Notes under the pieces: generated by a model
What the model was told of the DNA's origin: nothing
Databases searched by the model: none
What the model saw: only the letters and a program-made list of their open reading frames with translations
Source of the DNA: Candidatus Marinacidobacterales bacterium
GTDB taxonomy: Bacteria; Acidobacteriota; Vicinamibacteria; Marinacidobacterales; DATDRI01
DNA length: 64,000 bases
Direction of reading: 5' to 3'
Assembly (NCBI GenBank): GCA_965219415.1
Contig: CBDCNP010000002.1
Location: forward strand, 4,064,001 to 4,128,000
Translations under genes and position numbers: made by a program
In this document: positions 4 through 51,466 of the stretch, in pieces
Layout of the letters: every line of letters begins with the position of its first letter
Numbering within the stretch: the stretch's first letter is position 1

Positions 4-1288
4 ATGTGCCGGAACCTCGTGCTGTTGGTGGTCCTCTTATCGTTGGCGATCCCCGCCGCAGCGCAAGAAGGGCCGGTGACTTTCGAGTTCAGCTTTTCGA
101 ACCCAGGCGCGCGAAGCATGGGTTTGGGAGGAGCCTTCGCAGCCATCGCAGACGATGCCACGGCTGCATTCAGCAATCCCGCGGGACTCAATCAGCTACT
201 CAAGCCGGAGGTCTCACTCGAGGGACGCCGTTGGTCCTACAACACGCCATTCGTCGCCGGAGGGCGTGCGTCGGGCGAGCCTACCGGCATCGGCCTCGAT
301 ACGGTTAGCGGACCGCGTTACGGAGTCTCTTCCGAAGCTCTCGCCGGCCTCTCTTTTCTGTCTTTCGTTTACCCGGGCAAGAAGTGGTCCCTCGCAGCCT
401 ACCGACATCGGTGGGCCAACTTCAGTCTAACCAGACAGGTCGATAGCCTCTTCGGCATCGTCGACGGCGAGCTCGAGTGCTTGGAGGATATTTTCTCGAC
501 GACAGACTTCAAAGTCACCAACAACGGTTTTGCGGCCGCTTACGAGATGACACCAAGCTTGAGCCTGGGTTTCGGGATGGTGTACTTCCAGGCGGAGATG
601 GACTCGCTGTCCGACGAGTTTGCCTCGGATGAAGAAGCTTTCTTCGAAGCCAATCCCCGGCTGCCGGAGTCTCTCGACACGAGCTATCACCTTCGCGGAA
701 AGGACTCCGGTGTCACGCTTCACGCGGGTTTCTTTTGGCGACCGACAGCGCAATGGTCCGTGGGTGGTTACTTCCGTGAGGGGCCGCAATTGACGATGGA
801 AATTACCGAGGTCGTGGGCCCGGCCAACGACGAGGCTCCGGCGGGAACCGTCGAACTCGACGCCACCACTCCCCTCAATCTTCCAACCGTCTACGGCATA
901 GGGGCCGCGTTCCGTGCAAACGAAGGGGCGCTGACTATCAGCCTCGAGTGGGATCGGGTCCGTTACTCCTCGATCACCAAAAGCCTCGACACAAACGTTT
1001 TCGATCCGGGTCAGATCAATCTATCCGACGGAAACGAGATCCATGTAGGCGTCGAGTATGTTTTCGTAACCGCCAAGCCCATCGTGGCCCTACGCGGGGG
1101 CGCATGGCGAGATCCTGCCCATGGTTTCGATTCGGGTCCGGCGGCGGATGTCTTCGAGCAGACGATCTTCAACGGTGGGGACGACGAAATTCATTTCTCC
1201 GGAGGCGTTGGTCTGGTACTGAGCAAGTTCCAATTCGATCTTGGACTCGAGGGACCTGCTGTCATTCTCGCTCGTCTTTCGATTCTGA
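4..1288 (+). CDS. FadL/OMPP1/TodX-like outer-membrane beta-barrel protein (frameshift near 1250)
   Basis: Signal peptide, then FSFSNPGARSMGLGGAFAAIADDATAAFSNPAGL, the FadL-family hatch motif. The +1 frame from 1253 reads DLLSFSLVFRF-stop (TGA 1286-1288), a typical C-terminal Phe beta-signal, so the called end at 1326 is probably a frameshift artefact. Confidence 0.8.
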
Positions 1289-1298
1289 GGGAGAGTCC

Positions 1299-3750
1299 GT
1301 GCGCGATCGCCGGGGCATCCCTTTAGAGCCATTCAGCTTCGCAGCCCTATTCCGCGGGCCGAGTTTCTCAATCACATCCCTTATCGCCTGCCTGGCCCTG
1401 GTACTTCTCTCTACACGCGCAGCCTCTGCCGAAACCTGGTTCGAGGCATACCACCAAGCCGAAGAGGCCCTGGCCGACGAGCGGTGGAGCGAAGCGATCC
1501 GCCATCTTAATACGGCACTCGAGCAGAAGCCGGACTCGAGCCTGAAGGTTCGCACTTACGGTATGAGGTTCATCTCGTACTTTCCCTTCTTGAAGCTTGG
1601 TGTCGCCTACTACCACCTGGGACAGGCGGACGCAGCAATGCAGACTTTCGAAACCGAGGAACGTCAACGAGAGATTCAGGGTTCGGAGAGAGACTACGCC
1701 GAGCTCCAAGAGTACCGTGGCTTGATTCGGGAGGCCCATACCGCGGCCGATCTCGAGAGAGAGCGACGTGCCGAAGAGGTGGTCACCGAGAACCTGAAAG
1801 CCGCGCGAGAGCTCGAAGAGCAGGGGCGCTTCGACGACGCGCTGGCCACCCTTGCGAAGACTCTTGCTGTGGCTCCAAACCTGGCCGAAGCTCAAGAGCT
1901 GAGACGACGCTTGTTGAGATCGGTTGCCGAGCAAGAGCGACGACAGGAGGTCGACGATCGCATGACCCGCTTGCTCGAGCAAGGAAGAACCGATTTGCAG
2001 GCGGGCAACTACCGCCGGGCGGCGACCAACCTTCGCCAGGCGTTGGACCTAAGGAATAACGCCGATGTCCTCGCCCTCCTCCAGCAAGCGCAGGAAGGGA
2101 TCCGTGTTGGAATCGAGAAGGAGGCGGGTGCAGGTAATCGCCAACGCCTGATCGCTCTGGGCTTGGAACGGGCCGCCGAGCTCGAGGCCACCGGTGAGCT
2201 GATACGCTCTTTGAATGAGCTTCAGGCCGTTCTGGTCCTCGATCCCCAAAACCCCGATGCCCGGGAACGCCAGGCTCGAATCATCCGAAAGCAGGTGGGA
2301 GCCGACGAGACCGATCGCCGAGCAAAGACCGTGCGTCGACTGCTGGGTGAAGCCGAGAACCTGCTCGGAGCCGGCCAGTACGATCAGGCCCTGCGGAACG
2401 CGAACCGTGTGCTCGCGCTGGAGCCGGACAATGGCGCGGCGCTCAGCTGTATCACGCGGGCCTATGCGAAGCTCAGCGATACGTTGCTATCAACCACGAA
2501 CGCTCCCCCGGCCATTCTCCTTGACGATCTCCCGCAGAGCGGGGCGGCAGAAACACCTGTTCAAGTGGTCCATTCGCCACAGTTCGTCCTCACCGGCTCG
2601 GTGTACGACAACACACCGGTCGAACTTTCTCTCATGGACGGTGACCACGTCGTCGGAACGCCGAGAATCCAAAACCCGGCAGTTCCAAGGCGTGTGGATA
2701 ACCACGTTCCGCTTTCAACAACGCATCGACCCCGGCGCGTCGACGTTCCAGGTAGTCGCGGTGGACGAAGGAGGCAAGTCCGCCACCGAGACCTACTCGG
2801 TCGAGTACGCCGTCCCATTCCTTCGTTCTTGGTGGTCCCCAGCCTCTCTCGGTGTGGCGTTGACGTCCCTGGTGTTCGGCTTCGTGGGCCTAAGGGCACG
2901 ACGACGCCATCAGTTGCTACGCCGCCGTTTCAACCCCTACGTTGCCGGCGCACCGATTCTGGAGCAGAAGAGGTACTTCGGGCGTCAAGGGCTGCTGGAT
3001 TACGTCCTTCGGAGAGTTCACAACAACAGCATCCTGATCTATGGAGAGAGGCGCATCGGCAAGACGAGTTTTCAACATCAGCTGAAGCAATGTCTGACAA
3101 CGCTCGACGATCCGGTTCACAAGTTCTACCCGGTTTACATCGACCTCCAAGGCACACCCCAGGAGAAGTTCTTCTCGACGATGGCGGCGGAGATCTTTCA
3201 CGAGCTTCCGCAATACGTCGATGGAATCGAGCCGAGCTCATCCCTGGACGAGGATACCTACGGATACCGGGATTTCGTGAAGGATATTCATCGAGTCCTC
3301 AAGGCCCTCGGCGGTACGACGAACAAGAGTGTCAAGCTGGCACTACTCATCGACGAAGTCGACGAACTCAACGACTACGACCCGCGCGTCAACCAGAAAT
3401 TACGGAGCCTCTTCATGAGAACGTTCGCCGACAACCTCGTCTCGGTCGTCTCGGGAGTCGGGATCAAGAAGCACTGGGAACGAGAGGGCAGCCCCTGGTA
3501 CAACTTCTTTCAGGAGATCGAGGTGAAGCCTCTCGATCGCAAGGAGGCTATATCGCTGGTCGAGGCTCCGGTGCGCGGGGTCTTCAGCTTCGCGGATGGA
3601 GTCGTAGATGAGATTCTACGGCGAACGGACTGTAAGCCGTACCTGATCCAGAGAGTTTGCTCGGCACTGGTCGACCGACTGCACGAGGAACAACGAGGAA
3701 GTTTCACCTTGGCCGATGTCGAGAGCGTCTGCCAACCCGAGGGGCTCTAG
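1299..3750 (+). CDS. Exported TPR-repeat / beta-rich domain / single TM / cytoplasmic STAND-type P-loop ATPase (one frameshift near 2672)
   Basis: GTG at 1299 after GAGGGAG. Signal peptide (LIACLALVLLSTRAASA) and TPR-like helices lie in ORF 948..3611. After AAAA at 2672-2675 the frame of ORF 2215..3750 gives a beta-rich segment, a TM (LGVALTSLVFGFVGL-RARRR), NPYVAG..YFGR, Walker A GERRIGKT and Walker B LLIDEVD. Confidence 0.75.
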
Positions 3751-3753
3751 AGG

Positions 3754-5688
3754 ATGCCGGTTACTCCCTACGTCGTCGGCCAGTGGGTCCGTGGAAAAAA
3801 ATTCTATGGACGCAGAGAGCTCGTTGCCGGCATTCTTCACGGCAATCGCAACTGCCTGTGGCTTCTCGGCACCCGCCGTATCGGCAAGACGTCCATCCTC
3901 AAGCAGCTCGAGCACCTGACGTCGACCTCACCTGATCTCGGTTACTTTTCCGTTTTCTGGGATTTTCAGGGTGCGGAAGAGCTGGAGGACTTGAACGAGA
4001 GTTTCGACGAGTCGCTGCTCGACGCGCTCGACCGGCTCGGCGAGGTGGGAATTCCTCTCGAACGCGTGCAGGCCGACGACCTGTTCGAGTCCATCAACAA
4101 ACTCCGCCGCGAGCTTCGCAGCAAGAACCTCGCGCTGCTGCTCCTGGGCGACGAAGTGGAGGAACTGGTCCACGTCAAGGAGAGAGCGCCCCGCTTTCTA
4201 CCCCGCCTTCGCCGGGCCCTGCAATCGGCGGAGAACATCCGCACCGTACTGGCCTCGAAGATCAAACTCTGGGATCTTGCGTCCGAGCAAACCAACACCT
4301 CGCCATTCCTTCACGGTTTCACGCCCCCGCTCTTCGTCCACGGACTCACTGACGACGAAGCGCGGTCGCTCGTCTGCCAGTCGCTACTCCCCGAAGACTC
4401 GAGGCCACAGTTCGATGAGAAGACGATCGAGGTCATCCGAACCCACTGCAATAATCACCCTTACCTTCTCCAACTTCTGTGCGAGCGTTACGTCGAGCGA
4501 ATGGAGCTCGAGCAGGCGATCGAGGAGATCGCCACCGATCAGATGGTGCGTCACTTCTTCGCGGTCGACTTCGAGATGTTGACCGAGACCGAGCGCAACA
4601 TCATTCGCATTATCGGCGACGAGAACGAGGCGACCACTCACGTCATACAGAGGACGCTAGGCATCGAGTCGGCCGGTTTGAGTGGTGATCTATCGCGGCT
4701 AGAAAACCTCGGATTCATCCGGCGAACCGCCAACGGCGACTACACCCTGGCGAACTTCTTCTTCAAGCGTTGGTTCCGTGAGCTTCCGCGAACCGAGCGC
4801 GCACGTCCCGGCGATCCCGGTCTGATCCAGCCCACCATCCAGGACGCGCACCTCGTCACCGGAGCGGTATCGGAGTCTTTCGGCCGAATCGACAATCGTT
4901 ATGAGCTCCTGGGGCTGCTCGGACAAGGCGAGACCGGCAAGGTGTACAAAGCGCACGACACGCTCCTCAACACCGTGGTCGCAGTCAAGCTATTCAAACC
5001 GGAGTATTGTGCCGAAGAGGAGGCCGTGACCAGGCTGCGCCGTGAGGTCTTGCTCTCGAGAAACCTCACCCATCCGAATATTCTCAAGATCTATGATCTC
5101 GGTGACGACGATGGTCAGCGGTACCTGACCATGCAATACGTGAAGGGTCCCGACCTGGCCGACGTCATCTCGAAGGAGGCTCCGCTTGCGATCGGCAGAG
5201 CGGTGGCGATCGCCGCCAAGCTTGCGGCGGCCTTGGACGTCGCTCGCCAGTCGAAGGTGCTCCACCGCGACATCAAACCCTCGAACGTATTGATCGACGA
5301 AACCGGAGAGCCACAGATCGCCGACTTCGGAGTGGCACGTCTTCTCGACGGGCCGGAGATCACGAAGAGCGGCGTCTTCCTCGGCACCCCGGTGTACGCT
5401 TCGCCGGAACTAATCACGGGTGCGAGAGTCGACCATCGTTCCGACCTCTACGCGCTCGGCGTCGTGACCTTCGAGATGGTGACTGGCCGGCGACCCTTCT
5501 TCGCTGATGACTTGCAGGAAATGTGCAGGATGCACATAGAGGTTCCCCCTCCCTCCCCGCGGAACCTTCGCCCGGAAGTCCCGGAGGAACTCTCCGCGAT
5601 ATTGCTACGCTGCCTCGCCAAGGATCCCGGCCAGCGATTCCAAAATGGCGCCGAGTTGCACGACGCGCTCGATGCCCTGGGCCTTTAG
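3754..5688 (+). CDS. STAND-type ATPase, winged-helix-like region and Hanks Ser/Thr protein kinase fusion
   Basis: TPYVVG..FYGR, Walker A GTRRIGKT, Walker B LLGDEVE. Kinase motifs GQGETGKVY, VAVK, HRDIKPSN, DFG, GTPVYASPE, SDLYALG. No TM segment. Confidence 0.9.
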   Translation: MPVTPYVVGQWVRGKKFYGRRELVAGILHGNRNCLWLLGTRRIGKTSILKQLEHLTSTSPDLGYFSVFWDFQGAEELEDLNESFDESLLDALDRLGEVGIPLERVQADDLFESINKLRRELRSKNLALLLLGDEVEELVHVKERAPRFLPRLRRALQSAENIRTVLASKIKLWDLASEQTNTSPFLHGFTPPLFVHGLTDDEARSLVCQSLLPEDSRPQFDEKTIEVIRTHCNNHPYLLQLLCERYVERMELEQAIEEIATDQMVRHFFAVDFEMLTETERNIIRIIGDENEATTHVIQRTLGIESAGLSGDLSRLENLGFIRRTANGDYTLANFFFKRWFRELPRTERARPGDPGLIQPTIQDAHLVTGAVSESFGRIDNRYELLGLLGQGETGKVYKAHDTLLNTVVAVKLFKPEYCAEEEAVTRLRREVLLSRNLTHPNILKIYDLGDDDGQRYLTMQYVKGPDLADVISKEAPLAIGRAVAIAAKLAAALDVARQSKVLHRDIKPSNVLIDETGEPQIADFGVARLLDGPEITKSGVFLGTPVYASPELITGARVDHRSDLYALGVVTFEMVTGRRPFFADDLQEMCRMHIEVPPPSPRNLRPEVPEELSAILLRCLAKDPGQRFQNGAELHDALDALGL

Positions 5689-5783: not shown

Positions 5784-6740
5784 ATGGTTACGACAAACGA
5801 GACCGATCGACGAAGCACGCTTTTGGCGGAGCTCAGAAGTGTCTACGACCTCCCTCTGCCCGAGCTTCTCTACCGCTCACAAGGGGTCCACCGGGCATCT
5901 CACAAGCCGGAGGACATCCAGCGCTGCGCGTTACTCAGCATCAAAACGGGCGGGTGTCCAGAAGACTGCGGCTACTGCGCCCAGAGCGCCCATTACAATA
6001 CCGAGGTCCCTTCGAGCGCTCTCATGGCGACCGAAGACGTGCTCGCCAAGGCGCTCACAGCGAAGGCAGCAGGCGCCTCACGGTTCTGCATGGGCACGGC
6101 GTGGCGTTCGGTGAAAGACGGCACGGATTTCGACGCCGTCCTGGAGATGGTGCGGGGCGTACGGGATCTCGGAATGGAAGCGTGCGTTACGCTAGGTATG
6201 CTCAACGACGAGCAAGCACGAGCGCTCAAAGAGGCCGGGCTGACCGCCTATAACCACAATCTGGATACTTCGCGCGAGTACTACCCGAATATCGTGAGCA
6301 CGCGCACCTACGACGACCGGCTAGCGACGCTAGACGCGGTAGAAAAGGCGGGAATCTCGGTTTGCTGTGGCGGCATTCTAGGGTTGGGGGAAAGCGTGGA
6401 AGATCGTTTGAAGCTCTTGACGGAGCTTCGGATGCGCGAGATCCCACCGGAAAGCATTCCCATCAATGCCCTCATGCCGATGCCAGGAACTCCTCTCGAA
6501 GATTCGCCTCCCGTGAAAGGGCTGGAGATGGTTCGCTTGATCGCGACCACCCGAATCTTCTTCCCGCAGGCACGCGTACGACTCGCCGCCGGCCGAAGCC
6601 GCATGAGCCGGGAGCTCCAGTTCCTTTGCTTTTTCGCCGGTGCGAACTCGATCTTCTTCGGGGAGAAGCTCCTCACCGCACCCAACCCCGAAACGAGCGA
6701 CGACGACCAGCTGTTTCGTTCGATGGGACTTCTGTCCTAG
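5784..6740 (+). CDS. bioB: Biotin synthase
   Basis: IKTGGCPEDCGYCAQS radical-SAM motif, YNHNLDT, ESIPINAL, ANSIFFGEKLLT. Likely ATG at 5784. Confidence 0.95.
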   Translation: MVTTNETDRRSTLLAELRSVYDLPLPELLYRSQGVHRASHKPEDIQRCALLSIKTGGCPEDCGYCAQSAHYNTEVPSSALMATEDVLAKALTAKAAGASRFCMGTAWRSVKDGTDFDAVLEMVRGVRDLGMEACVTLGMLNDEQARALKEAGLTAYNHNLDTSREYYPNIVSTRTYDDRLATLDAVEKAGISVCCGGILGLGESVEDRLKLLTELRMREIPPESIPINALMPMPGTPLEDSPPVKGLEMVRLIATTRIFFPQARVRLAAGRSRMSRELQFLCFFAGANSIFFGEKLLTAPNPETSDDDQLFRSMGLLS

Positions 6741-6752
6741 ACAGTCCGGCGC

Positions 6753-8669
6753 GTGAGCGACGCGATCATTCTCGGCACCGATACCGACGCCGGGAAGACA
6801 ACCTTCTCCCTCCTTTGGATGACCGCCTTTCCGAAGGACTTTGCGTATTGGAAACCGGTAGAGACCGGCCCCTCCGACACCGAAACCGTCGAACGACTCG
6901 TACCTGAAGCGCGAGTCCACCCTCCCCTCGCCCGCTTTCGCGACGCGGTGGCTCCCGAGGTCGCCGCAGAGCGCGAAGGGCGTTCGGTTCCCGCCGTCGG
7001 AGAAATCTTGGGTGCCGTTCCCGAAGACACGCGTTCCCTTCTCATCGAGACTTTTGGAAGTCCCCTCTCACCCCTTCGTCCGAACGTTTTACAGATCGAG
7101 CTCATCCGGCAATTCGAGAGGCTTAGTTTGCTGGTCGGCACGACGGCGGTGGGTGCGGTGGGACGAGCCCTTCAGTCAATCGAGACCCTTCGCGCAAACG
7201 GCATCGAACCTCGCGCACTAGTACTCGTCGGGCCAATAGACACCTACGCCGAGTCCAAGATTCGCCAGCACGGGGGTCTCGACGTTTTCACGCTAGAGCC
7301 ACCTGCCGCGTTCGACGAAGAAGGCGTGCGTCGTTGTGCCCAGAAACAAATCGATGTCCTACGCTCCCTACGCGAGACCCTCGCACTCGATCCATCGATC
7401 GACAAAGACTGGGTGGCGCGCGATCGGCGCTCGGTGTGGCATCCCTACACCTCCCTCAGAGATCCCGATGAACCGTTAAACGTCGTCGACTCGTGCGATG
7501 AGTTCCTGATTCTAGAAGACGGCCGACAGATCATCGACGGCATCTCTTCGTGGTGGACCATTCAGCACGCGCATCGCTACCCTCCGCTCATGAAGGCTCT
7601 CCGGGAAGCGGCGCGCCGATACGATCATGTCGTTTTCGCGGGGGTCACGCATCCCCCCGCCATCGAGCTTGCGGAGCGGATGCTCGCCAGCATGCCTTGG
7701 TCGGGTGGCCGTGTCTTCTACTCGGATAACGGAAGTACCGCGGTCGAAGTCGCCCTCAAAATGGCCTATCAGTTTTGGTGTCACCGTGGCGAGCCGGGGC
7801 GGCGTTTGTTCGTCGGCTTCGAAGGCGGCTATCACGGCGATACTTTTGGCGCTATGGCGGTGAGTCGCGACCCGCTATTCTTCGGTACCTTCGAGCCCTT
7901 GCTCTTCGAATCGCGGATCGTCCCGCTTTCACCGAAGAGCCTGGATAGACTCCTCGTACGGGAAGGCAGTCGAGTCGCCGCCGTCATCCTCGAGCCTCTG
8001 GTACAAGGGGCAGGCGGCATGCTCATGCACTCCCCCGAAACGCTAGCAGCGCTTGCGGAGGTGTCGCGCAAGCACGGCGTGCTCTTTATCGCCGATGAAG
8101 TCATGACCGGTGGTGGTCGTACCGGAACCCTTTGGGCGCATCAAACCGCTGGTATCACACCCGATCTAGTCTGTGCCGGGAAGACCATTGCCGGGGGAAT
8201 CCTTCCCATCGCCACGACTCTAGTCGCGCCTCACATCGTCGAGGCCTTCGACACCGAGGATCGGTCTCGCACGTTTTTTCACGGCCACTCCTTCACCGCC
8301 CATCCGCTTTCGTGTGCGGTAGGTGTTGCTAACTGGAGGCTCATGGAAAACGGCATCGGCGACGAGCCGCGACAGATCGAGAGCTTTTGGCGGGGGCGAA
8401 TCGAGCCGATGCGGTCCCGTGAAGGCGTCAAAGACGTTCGCATCCAAGGAACCATCGCCGCTATCGAGCTTGACCTCCCGGGAGGCTATCTCGCCGACAC
8501 CGGCCGTCGCATGCGGCAGGTGTGTCTCGAGCGCGGCGTCTGGCTGCGACCGCTCGGCAACGTTCTCTATGCCCTGCCACCGTTCCGAACGCCTCGAGCA
8601 TCACTCGAACAGATTGCCGACGCGATGGAATCGGCGGTTGCGGAAGTCTTGGAAGCTAGCAACCCATGA
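6753..8669 (+). CDS. bioDA: Bifunctional dethiobiotin synthetase / DAPA aminotransferase (BioD-BioA fusion)
   Basis: N-terminal GTDTDAGKT and YWKPV (BioD). C-terminal VWHPYT, DGISSWW, DNGSTAVEVALKMA, YHGDT, FIADEVMTG and HGHSFTAHP (BioA). Confidence 0.92.
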   Translation: MSDAIILGTDTDAGKTTFSLLWMTAFPKDFAYWKPVETGPSDTETVERLVPEARVHPPLARFRDAVAPEVAAEREGRSVPAVGEILGAVPEDTRSLLIETFGSPLSPLRPNVLQIELIRQFERLSLLVGTTAVGAVGRALQSIETLRANGIEPRALVLVGPIDTYAESKIRQHGGLDVFTLEPPAAFDEEGVRRCAQKQIDVLRSLRETLALDPSIDKDWVARDRRSVWHPYTSLRDPDEPLNVVDSCDEFLILEDGRQIIDGISSWWTIQHAHRYPPLMKALREAARRYDHVVFAGVTHPPAIELAERMLASMPWSGGRVFYSDNGSTAVEVALKMAYQFWCHRGEPGRRLFVGFEGGYHGDTFGAMAVSRDPLFFGTFEPLLFESRIVPLSPKSLDRLLVREGSRVAAVILEPLVQGAGGMLMHSPETLAALAEVSRKHGVLFIADEVMTGGGRTGTLWAHQTAGITPDLVCAGKTIAGGILPIATTLVAPHIVEAFDTEDRSRTFFHGHSFTAHPLSCAVGVANWRLMENGIGDEPRQIESFWRGRIEPMRSREGVKDVRIQGTIAAIELDLPGGYLADTGRRMRQVCLERGVWLRPLGNVLYALPPFRTPRASLEQIADAMESAVAEVLEASNP

Positions 8670-50083: not shown

Positions 50084-51466
50084 GGGTCTACGCGGATTCG
50101 TGTGGGTTGAAAACTGCATTTCTGGGTAATGGCGGAAGGAAAGCCGCCACGATCTTCAGCTTGAGATATTCCTCGTCGCGATAGCCGTAGGCGCGTCGTT
50201 GCAGAACACGGATTTTGTTGTTGACCCCTTCAACTAGGCCGAGACTGACTTTGTTCTCCGGATGACAGTAGGAGGCGATACCATCCCAATGGGACTCAAT
50301 CATACCGGCGAACTTCTGGTACGGATGCAGGCGTTGCCATTTGAGGCTGTCTTTCCAACGGGTGAAAAAGGCGCGAGCGCCGCGTTCGGTGCGGTAATCC
50401 CAGAGTTGCCCGAAGGCCTCCTTCAAAATATAGGCGGTGTTCAGGCGCCGGTTGGCCTGGAGCAACTTTTTGAGTGCGCGGCGACCGTCTAGGCTCAGGT
50501 TCTCCCGCCGGGAAAGCAAAGTGTAACGCTGCCCCTTGATGTACGACCGGTCCTTGCCGCTGAGGCGTTTGTACTCACCGCGCCGGACCTCATCGAGGGC
50601 CTTTGACAGATGACGCATGATATGAAACTTGTCGAAGATGATCCGCGCATTAGGCGCGTTGTGAATCACCGAGTTCCGGAAGGGCTTCCACATATCCATG
50701 GCGGCCAGCTTGATACGGGCGCTTTTCTTTCCGCCCGGCGCCTTGAAGAACAAATCGATGTCGGTTTCTTTGCGACCCTCACCGCCCACCCAGATGGGAC
50801 GCGCCCGCTCCAGGTCGCTGACAATGACGCGATAGTTATGTCCCTTGCGGATGGAGATTTCATCGACACCGATGGCCCGAGGCGCCGGTAGCCCCGCCCG
50901 GTCGACCTACTCTTGCATGTAGAGCGTATCCAGAGCCTTCACCGTACCGTGGTGCAGACGTTCCATCTCGGCCACCGCCTTGTTCGGCATATCCCGGCAC
51001 AGCTTGCCCACATGCGTCGCAAAACGCTGGGTGTAGCGCGAGTTGTTCGCCAGCCAGTCTAGGTGTTCTACATGCACACCGCCGCACCCAGAACAGTTGA
51101 CGCGCCAACGCTCGTATTCCAGATAGATCCGCCAGCCTGCCAACGACAGGTCGCGGACCCGGCACACTTGCTTGTCATAGCGCCCCCGGCACCGTTGCCC
51201 ACAGTAAGAGCACACAGCTGTTTTTTTCGCCTCTTGAGCTGGATGACGCGGGCGTATCGGTCACCGAATAGACCCTTCAATCCGGCACCAACCACGAAAC
51301 CTGGCAGCGCAAACAGCGAGCGGATCGACTGGGAATTTTTCACTCGGTTAGCCTATCCTAAAATGGACCACTTTTCAGCACCTGATGAAGTACTCGATAC
51401 CTTTTCCACACAATGAGTTACACTGTTTTTCCGTCAGAACTTACCCACACGAATCCGCGTAAACCC
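50084..51466 (-). mobile_element. ISL3-family insertion sequence with disrupted transposase
   Basis: TIRs GGGTCTACGCGGATTCGTGTGGGT and GGGTTTACGCGGATTCGTGTGGGT. Motifs AAMDMWKPF, FDKFH, EGVNNKI and RAYGYR. A7C slippery run at 51220-51227 and a premature TAG at 50907. No TSD. Confidence 0.9.

Follow-up and report, generated by a model that had tools for sequence, protein, structure and literature searches.

How could a soluble Hanks kinase that has no sensor domain of its own be informed about events at the cell envelope? This question is raised by three genes at the start of a 64,000-nucleotide stretch of DNA (the window) from Candidatus Marinacidobacterales bacterium, a member of the Acidobacteriota (assembly GCA_965219415.1, contig CBDCNP010000002.1, positions 4,064,001 to 4,128,000 of the forward strand). 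Positions 4-5688 hold, on one strand, a gene for a FadL-fold outer-membrane barrel (gene 1), a gene for a receptor-like protein with tetratricopeptide repeats (TPR), a transmembrane (TM) helix and an ATPase domain (gene 2), and a gene for a protein with an ATPase domain, a winged helix and a Hanks kinase domain (gene 3). The tight packing of the three genes, noticed in a first-pass annotation of the sequence, is confirmed by the list of open reading frames (ORFs) and their translation. Genes 1 and 2 are 10 bp apart (1289-1298), and genes 2 and 3 are 3 bp apart (3751-3753).

The first-pass annotation read the trio as a split trans-envelope receptor kinase joined through its ATPase domains, a reading that is partly supported by the results given here. 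The three findings that it named as refuting this reading (separate TPR and ATPase genes in homologues, no co-occurrence elsewhere, no interaction of the ATPase domains) did not turn up. We see about an even chance that the trio is a conserved sensory module spanning the envelope, in which gene 2 provides the receptor and gene 3 the output and to which the barrel also belongs. The copy found in the window is probably out of service.

Domain architecture of the receptor and the kinase

Gene 2 starts with a GTG codon, which is preceded by GGAGAG. It encodes a signal peptide, TPRs, a beta-rich domain, a TM helix and an ATPase domain with no effector, as the first-pass annotation had it (Table 1). 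In a genome of the same genus (G001), its orthologue P0121 is intact and has all these parts in identical order in a single frame of 821 aa. A protein search with the ATPase part of this intact receptor found 1164 homologues. TPR families are carried by 114 of the 120 listed, and most of these homologues are ~780-840 aa long. Therefore the fusion of TPR and ATPase parts in one protein, which the first-pass annotation had assumed, is the rule. One of the six listed homologues without TPR is the window's own 511-aa ORF. The first ~75 residues of the mature receptor contain a dense block of invariant positions. No output domain was found on gene 2-type proteins among the listed homologues or in a search for longer (Rosetta-stone) proteins, whose 22 matches include no receptor-kinase fusion, although this last is weak evidence.

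Gene 3 encodes an intact protein. Its kinase domain scores 177.6 bits against Pkinase (cut-off 31.7), and the VAVK, HRDIKPSN, DFG and SPE motifs are all present. No hydrophobic segment is found in its orthologue P0001 (91% identical), in line with the soluble kinase of the first-pass annotation. The AlphaFold2 (AF2) model of residues 1-370 has a predicted local distance difference test (pLDDT) score of 86 and a predicted template modelling (pTM) score of 0.85. In Foldseek, the best folds for this module are two archaeal proteins, PAB2304 (2qen; query TM-score, TMq, 0.64, rank 1) and SSO1545 (2fna; 0.58, rank 2), which we take to be members of the Pfam family ATPase_2 (PF01637). Further matches include Orc1/Cdc6, plant nucleotide-binding leucine-rich repeat receptors (NLRs), CED-4, Apaf-1 and MalT. 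Because of these fold matches, the NTPase-helical-winged helix module of gene 3 is placed on the border between AAA+ proteins and signal transduction ATPases with numerous domains (STAND). A PDB sequence search with the same residues gave nothing meaningful, and matches in the ESM Atlas were limited to generic AAA/STAND-like clusters.

The ATPase domains of genes 2 and 3 are paralogues (30% identity, E 9.5e-12), as the first-pass annotation proposed from the motifs (N/T)PYV.G, G.RRIGKT and DEV.EL, which both of them contain. Walker A and B residues do not vary among the 33 sequences that were compared for each paralogue. STAND NTPases are defined by Walker A and B plus a GR-containing motif upstream of the P-loop. 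An F..G-R motif is conserved in both paralogues ~20 residues upstream of Walker A.

The class assignment made in the first-pass annotation holds only in part. Gene 2 passes the cut-off of ATPase_2 (34.6 bits vs 33.2), and the fold of gene 3 matches STAND members. The STAND-clade models, however, remain below their cut-offs for gene 2 (nSTAND1 21.4 vs 27.1 bits, NACHT 21.0 vs 26.7 bits). Gene 3 itself scores 21.2 bits against ATPase_2, below the cut-off, while its relatives P0071 (38.6) and P0093 (31.9) fall above and below it, respectively. Some relatives (e.g., P0093 with 30.9 bits) exceed the cut-off of nSTAND1. Both ATPases appear to fit ATPase_2 and its solved archaeal members best. In more distant relatives (26-37% identity), the ATPase shares one chain with GAF and receiver domains, a setting that belongs to signalling. 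Among these are P0242-P0260 (1479-2173 aa) from Saprospiraceae-like and other bacteria, in which a 30-37%-identical ATPase exists with GAF, receiver and DUF3369 domains. Judged from their domain content, these proteins use the NTPase of this clade in a signalling architecture of their own, which is cytoplasmic.

The FadL-fold barrel

Gene 1 scores 42.5 bits against the Pfam family Toluene_X (PF03349, FadL/TodX/OMPP1; cut-off 29.7), and its intact orthologue in G001 scores 36.2 bits. A profile of the barrel family matches FadL, TbuX, CymD and a P. aeruginosa homologue in the PDB with E-values of 4e-7 to 2e-3. The AF2 model of the G001 orthologue (pLDDT 87.6) is most similar to E. coli FadL (TMq 0.65), followed by TbuX, TodX and CymD (0.54-0.58), which agrees with the FadL-like barrel named in the first-pass annotation. 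Other matches, by their PDB titles, are the FadL-like subunit of Bacteroidota beta-barrel assembly machinery (BAM) complexes (TMq 0.61) and a type 9 translocon entry. The N-terminus of the barrel touches the NCBIfam models of PorV/PorQ, BamG and FadL, all far below cut-off. The gene 1 family is predicted to form a barrel of about 14 strands (a count that is not rigorous) with an N-terminal hatch plug.

The hatch contains an NPA motif (window 175-183). In the 19 barrels compared, N59 and P60 never vary, and A61 is conserved to at least 90%. Invariant columns are concentrated in this part of the protein, with 24 of 41 falling in hatch residues 35-76. The role of the NPA motif in FadL-type hatches is described in PMC8407342. 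A putative function of the gene 1 barrel is the transport of hydrophobic substrates.

Co-occurrence of the three genes

Contigs were scanned with one genome per species, and 177 receptor relatives were found, of which the best 80 were analyzed as loci, with none dropped. Genes were called as longest-frame ORFs and assigned by blastp (barrel E≤1e-15, ATPases E≤1e-30, kinase E≤1e-20, Trans_reg_C E≤1e-8). Among these best 80 of 177 loci, a barrel of the subfamily is found in 63 and the partner ATPase in 76. The partner is located directly downstream of the receptor gene in 57 loci, and its start overlaps the receptor stop by 4 bp in 15 of the 26 loci that have a credible start call. The loci belong to Acidobacteriota (62), Woeseiaceae-like Gammaproteobacteria (11), Alphaproteobacteria (1) and Binatota (1), and five are unplaced. 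The synteny suggested by the first-pass annotation therefore extends well beyond this genome; from these neighbourhoods, the trio appears to be a conserved unit and not a local accident.

The frequency of the barrel is far above the chance expectation. Eighteen Toluene_X matches in five genomes (~32 Mb) correspond to ~0.01 per 19-kb locus vs the 63/80 observed; note that the former figure comes from Pfam on whole genomes and the latter from blastp with the window's barrel, which are different detection methods. More than 30 gene orders exist among the 80 loci, including tandem, divergent and convergent ones. The commonest order, in which the barrel is directly upstream of gene 2 on the same strand, is found in 11 loci. 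Among close relatives, 14 of 61 genomes (the window's own genome, G000, included) match the ATPase module of gene 3. The barrel-receptor-kinase tandem is found in G001, G034 and G038. In G005 two barrels are convergent with the pair, and in G030 and G024 the barrel is divergent.

Interchangeable outputs and an old duplication

Not all partners are kinases. In the 80 loci, the partner carries a kinase in 36 cases and a Trans_reg_C domain (OmpR/CadC-type) in 28, and never both. Trans_reg_C is found in 9 of the 11 gammaproteobacterial loci, and a kinase in none. A protein search with residues 1-370 of gene 3 gave a similar picture. It found at least 721 relatives, and the 120 listed include 90 with a kinase, 27 with Trans_reg_C and 3 with neither. 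The kinase is C-terminal and Trans_reg_C is N-terminal on the partner. In NCBIfam, the best model for the Woeseiaceae-type Trans_reg_C partner is CadC, which remains below cut-off. Two to three C-terminal hydrophobic segments exist in 8 of the 28 Trans_reg_C partners, which are of the Woeseiaceae type. In some acidobacterial loci, the receptor is accompanied by two paralogues, one bare and one with Trans_reg_C. In loci of the gammaproteobacterial type (L058-L062, L072, L073, L083 and L113), a gene for a 540-aa DUF5666 + DUF2807 (adhesin-head-like) protein lies between the divergent Trans_reg_C partner and the receptor. The exchange of kinase and DNA-binding outputs on the same partner provides independent support for a signalling role.

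A FastTree phylogeny was built from 167 ATPase pieces, without bootstraps and leaving out pieces shorter than 220 residues. All receptor ATPases (78 rows) group together, set apart from the remaining pieces by a branch with support 100. Each output type has changed at least four times on well-supported branches, in a tree where some 'bare' and Trans_reg_C rows have long branches and odd composition. The tree indicates that the receptor and partner lineages have been paired since one old duplication.

The first-pass annotation also suggested that the two ATPase domains hetero-oligomerize. A complex prediction with the two ATPase parts gave a score of 0.58, while the best of three controls gave 0.00. 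In the benchmark, the mark is reached by 58 of 80 solved complexes and by 2 of 110 mismatched pairs, counts that hold only roughly here as the prediction used its own alignments. Scores of 0.60 or lower belong to only 7 of those 80 solved complexes and to both passing mismatches. Across runs, contact agreement was at least 88% and partner pLDDT at least 81. The pass may reflect likeness to solved AAA+/STAND oligomers. The predicted complex passes the mark and lends the proposed hetero-oligomer weak support.

The strength of this prediction bears on another explanation, in which the two ATPases are independent. Gene 3 would then encode a self-contained NTPase-regulated kinase, and gene 2 an unrelated membrane ATPase that acts with the barrel in, for example, envelope assembly or lipid traffic. 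The weak complex prediction agrees with this. So do the BAM and type 9 translocon matches of the barrel, since FadL-fold barrels serve in these protein machines, and TPR proteins are common envelope scaffolds. Independence is nevertheless quite improbable given the regular pairing described above, with its directly downstream partners and 4-bp overlaps, the pairing of the lineages since one old duplication and the lack of an output domain among the gene 2-type proteins searched.

A candidate envelope-spanning sensory module

Gene 2 would encode a single-pass inner-membrane receptor that detects a cue with its TPR and beta domains in the periplasm. In the cytoplasm, the ATPase_2-type (STAND-like) domain of this receptor would associate with the ATPase of gene 3 depending on the nucleotide state, and this NTPase tail would recruit or release the output-bearing paralogue. 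Gene 3 would supply the output. This is a Hanks kinase in the window, and other lineages have an OmpR/CadC-type DNA-binding domain in its place. The FadL-fold barrel would be the outer-membrane end of the module. Most likely it would admit a hydrophobic compound that is sensed by the TPR domain. Or it would present its highly conserved hatch to the TPR domain. A split receptor fits the data because the pairing is conserved, translation seems to be coupled, the duplication is old, the Walker motifs are intact in both ATPases and the outputs are interchangeable. Hydrophobic compounds are a plausible cue because the barrel has OmpW-family and hydrolase genes as neighbours.

Several points weigh against a three-part sensory module. 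In three class-level relatives (G056, G058 and G060), which have the receptor and a kinase-less partner, no barrel was found nearby, nor was one found in 17 of the 80 loci, although many of these 17 are short contigs. The module is rare and patchy: of 301 genomes sampled from the phylum, 7 have it, G000 among them. Its copies decay readily (G000, G014 and G018), in the manner of accessory or conflict genes. The 80 loci were chosen as the best by similarity to gene 2 and are mutually related, so the counts are not independent, and they depend on longest-frame ORF calls and self-chosen blastp cut-offs. The ATPase complex is only weakly predicted, and all steps of the mechanism come from computation.

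Because of its absence near some pairs, the barrel may be a regulated target or a ligand gate instead of a part of the signalling chain. It is unlikely, though by no means far-fetched, that genes 2 and 3 are simply a regulator pair and that the FadL, OmpW and hydrolase genes are its regulon or a supply route. The loci often have two to four barrels, and recurrent neighbours are an OmpW-family barrel (18/80), a beta-lactamase-fold hydrolase (9/80) and a DUF5666/DUF2807 protein (8/80). The position and strand of the barrel vary freely, and FadL-family channel genes adjoin two-component systems in aromatic-degradation operons. Against a mere regulon, the commonest order has the barrel directly upstream on the same strand, with a gap of 10 bp in the window. 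Also, conservation of the barrel is highest in the hatch, seemingly beyond the needs of transport.

The resemblance to NLRs, CED-4 and Apaf-1 also brings to mind an anti-phage or conflict system, in which an invader would be recognized at the envelope by a STAND-like NTPase through its TPR sensor, with the kinase as the effector. The patchy, cross-phylum distribution and the decaying copies are compatible with such a role, and the kinase domain of gene 3 is matched by models of defence-system kinases. These matches in PADLOC-DB 2.0 are due solely to the generic kinase domain, however. The barrel matches none of its families, and the receptor matches only Avs1b (E 3.6e-4, 16 bits) and PDC-S01 (E 0.0048, 13.8 bits). 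The output that can replace the kinase is a DNA-binding domain and not a toxic effector, and outer-membrane channels and a hydrolase, instead of defence genes, are conserved in the neighbourhood. Searches of 50,697 phage records and 72,556 plasmids gave no relative in the former and a single match, 25% identical, in the latter. A defence role is thus very unlikely.

Comparison with known systems

Output-bearing STAND-type NTPases include MalT, the SARP-type regulator AfsR and the kinase-bearing PknK. The trio shares with them a P-loop NTPase followed by a helical domain and a winged helix, a presumed TPR sensor and, as proposed here, nucleotide-dependent oligomerization that governs a transcription or kinase output. 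Unlike in these single-chain proteins, sensor and output are split over two paralogous NTPases. In addition, the predicted sensor is N-terminal and periplasmic, on the other side of the inner membrane, the two genes are accompanied by one for an outer-membrane barrel, and the proteins of the window do not reach the cut-offs of STAND-specific Pfam models. PAB2304 and SSO1545 resemble the gene 3 module in fold, and gene 2 passes the ATPase_2 cut-off. Their PDB titles describe both as soluble, stand-alone proteins with no assigned function, and they lack TPR, membrane anchor, kinase and paired paralogue.

In its logic, the trio resembles the FecA-FecR-FecI cell-surface signalling system, in which an outer-membrane barrel, a single-pass inner-membrane protein with a periplasmic sensor and an output that alters transcription act together. 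While FecA-type signalling uses its own protein families, which are absent from the Pfam results of the three genes, the trio has a FadL-fold barrel and would relay the signal through P-loop NTPases. Plant sensor/helper NLR pairs are cytoplasmic immune receptors with cell-death outputs. They also consist of two paralogous NTPases, one sensing and one executing. In the trio, one partner would be a membrane receptor and the outputs would be regulatory. The Woeseiaceae-type partner, with its N-terminal Trans_reg_C and C-terminal hydrophobic segments, is similar to ToxR/CadC. It differs from them in having an ATPase and a winged helix between the DNA-binding domain and the anchor and in leaving the periplasmic sensor to a separate protein.

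There is precedent for a FadL-fold barrel that is coupled to a periplasmic TPR-like element or complex. It is reported in PMC8407342 that FadL-like proteins of T. pallidum have a periplasmic helical extension with a TPR motif, in domains that were modelled and not solved. Another example is the FadL-like subunit of the Bacteroidota BAM. The coupling is a fusion in T. pallidum and membership of an assembly machine in BAM, and neither has an ATPase or a kinase, in contrast to the trio.

No description of a system with a TPR-TM-ATPase, an ATPase-kinase and a barrel was found in the literature, with supplements and subscription journals lying outside the coverage; the first-pass annotation had not recognized it as a described system either. 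The architecture is absent from the accessible portions of PMC13581612, PMC10907252, PMC8195603, PMC7159879 and PMC8407342, and the terms 'ATPase', 'AAA' and 'STAND' are absent from the accessible text of 10.1101/2025.01.12.632604. Every domain of the trio is known; their arrangement is not.

A bolder proposal, which is tentative and somewhat unlikely, is that the module represents an undescribed form of trans-envelope transduction without histidine kinases or anti-sigma factors. The hatch of the FadL-fold barrel would report the passage of a substrate to the TPR head. The receptor would nucleate a hetero-oligomer with one or two cytoplasmic paralogues that carry interchangeable outputs, making the module a membrane-spanning bacterial counterpart of sensor/helper NLR pairs.

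If the sensory module is real, bacteria have a further route for information from the outer membrane to the cytoplasm, through split STAND-like NTPases with repeatedly swapped outputs. Soluble Hanks kinases without a sensor domain would gain an upstream receptor, and FadL-fold channels would gain a sensory role. The carriers are abundant and mostly uncultured sediment lineages (Acidobacteriota and Woeseiaceae), in which the module may govern the detection and uptake of hydrophobic organic matter. Its rarity and ready decay temper the interest of the module without removing it.

Probable decay of the copy in the window

The window probably also offers a case of module decay in a genome laden with insertion sequences. 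Gene 1 begins with ATG and is read in frame 1 up to ~1248. Frame 1 itself is open to a TAG at 1324-1326, but the ancestral C-terminal strand, with its terminal Phe and the TGA at 1286-1288, is in frame 2 from ~1250. Lesion 1 (Table 1) has thrown this last strand of the barrel out of frame, and lesion 2 splits gene 2 between its periplasmic part and its TM-ATPase part. Barrel assembly generally requires an intact last strand with a C-terminal aromatic residue. After the inserted A of lesion 2, frame 3 is open for ~310 more codons without homology, which gives a misleading 887-aa ORF (window 948-3611, +). Instead of this ORF, gene callers recorded a 511-aa frame-1 ORF (2215-3750, P0123).

Table 1. 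Positions of the three genes, their domains and the two lesions in the window
Feature	Position	Strand	Description	Evidence
Gene 1	4..1288	+	FadL-family outer-membrane barrel; signal peptide and hatch	ORF/translation, Pfam, AF2, Foldseek
Lesion 1	1238..1250	+	14 letters absent; short direct repeats flanking	Sister-strain contigs, G001 alignment
Gene 2	1299..3750	+	Receptor-like protein; frame 3 up to the A-run, frame 1 beyond	Pfam, translation
Gene 2 signal peptide	1299-1430	+	44 residues	
Gene 2 TPR region	~1431-2504	+	~360 residues	Pfam TPR families over residues ~89-384
Gene 2 beta-rich domain	~2505-2817	+		
Lesion 2	2671..2674	+	One extra A; A4 here, A3 in sister strains and G001	
Gene 2 TM helix	2830-2892	+	Hydrophobic; followed by RARRR	
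Gene 2 ATPase	2893-3747	+	285 residues, predicted cytoplasmic; Walker A 3043-3069, Walker B 3343-3369	
Gene 3	3754..5688	+	Soluble ATPase-helical domain-winged helix-Hanks kinase; 644 aa, intact	Pfam, AF2, Foldseek
Gene 3 Walker motifs	3868-3894 (A); 4138-4167 (B)	+		
Gene 3 winged helix	Residues 276-327		MarR-like matches	Pfam
Gene 3 Hanks kinase	Residues 383-630		VAVK 4978, HRD 5263, DFG 5323	

Two kinds of comparison show the same lesions. The window and G001 have 86% DNA identity over 5.7 kb, and the alignment has the same two length differences (near 1238-1250 and at ~2671). Contigs from public sequencing runs were aligned to window positions 1100-3900. Contigs X4 and X5, which come from two studies and have depths of 22.6 and 6.5, are identical to the window with both lesions included. 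Contigs X1 and X9, from two other studies, have a few substitutions, 14 extra letters behind 1238 and one fewer at 2671. These differences restore both reading frames, and the last strand of gene 1 is in frame in G001, X1 and X9. Programmed frameshifting was considered and dropped, as each of genes 1 and 2 occupies a single frame in G001 and the sister strains.

Signs of erosion are not limited to this locus. An ISL3 transposase has 73 matches in its 8.05 Mb, of which more than 20 are full-length at 98-100% identity and several have internal stops. Such an expansion of ISL3 is typical of an eroding genome. One copy is located ~0.84 kb upstream of window base 4 (G000:C3:4062040-4063164) and another is inside the window at 50091-51215 (-; Pfam DDE_Tnp_ISL3, 230 bits). 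A second, fragmented copy of the module with ~40-50% identity is found at G000:C1:33916-37971 (L046 7917-11972, -). Pieces of the receptor, a junction between the two ATPases and stubs of the kinase and the barrel are left of it, and an ISL3 fragment (C1:31813-32427) lies ~1.5 kb from this copy.

The first-pass annotation treated the frameshifts as artefacts to be repaired from reads. It is improbable that they are assembly or read errors and that the window's module is intact and working. One lesion does fall in a homopolymer, and the many split kinase matches in this genome could reflect indel errors. X4 and X5 may be the very data behind the assembly of the window, a point that weighs against our reading of the lesions as well, since the agreement is then not fully independent proof. 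Errors do not readily account for lesions that are reproduced in the contigs of two studies and absent from near-identical strains of two others. Because the loss of 14 letters between direct repeats is unusual for a read error, and because of the ISL3 load and the fragmented second copy, both lesions are very probably genuine in this lineage. Genes 1 and 2 are likely inactive here. With so many ISL3 transposase matches in the genome, the window copy is probably decaying. The module of this genome is probably out of service, its barrel having lost the last strand and its receptor being cut, with gene 3 alone intact and orphaned.

Decay is also seen in two other genomes. In G014 (L045), insertions of ~3.5 kb and ~1.5 kb are found in the receptor and kinase genes, and there is a hybrid junction between the paralogous ATPases. 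In G018 (L041), the locus is a rearranged mosaic with barrel fragments on either side. Genome-wide, ~90 Hanks kinase domain matches exist in the genome of the window, several of which are split across adjacent frames or have stops.

Neighbouring genes

None of the three proteins has a match above cut-off in NCBIfam. The Pfam results of the three genes include no TonB-dependent transducer, FecR-type anti-sigma factor or extracytoplasmic function (ECF) sigma factor; the neighbouring genes were not searched specifically for these. Downstream of the trio on the same strand are bioB (5790-6740; Radical_SAM + BATS) and a gene for a dethiobiotin synthetase-like protein (AAA_26) fused to a class-III aminotransferase (6753-8669, +). 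As ~2.7 kb of other DNA intervenes between gene 3 and bioB in G001, the downstream border of the trio is not conserved. Directly upstream of the window is a 176-aa fragment of a Hanks kinase (L047 9291-9821).

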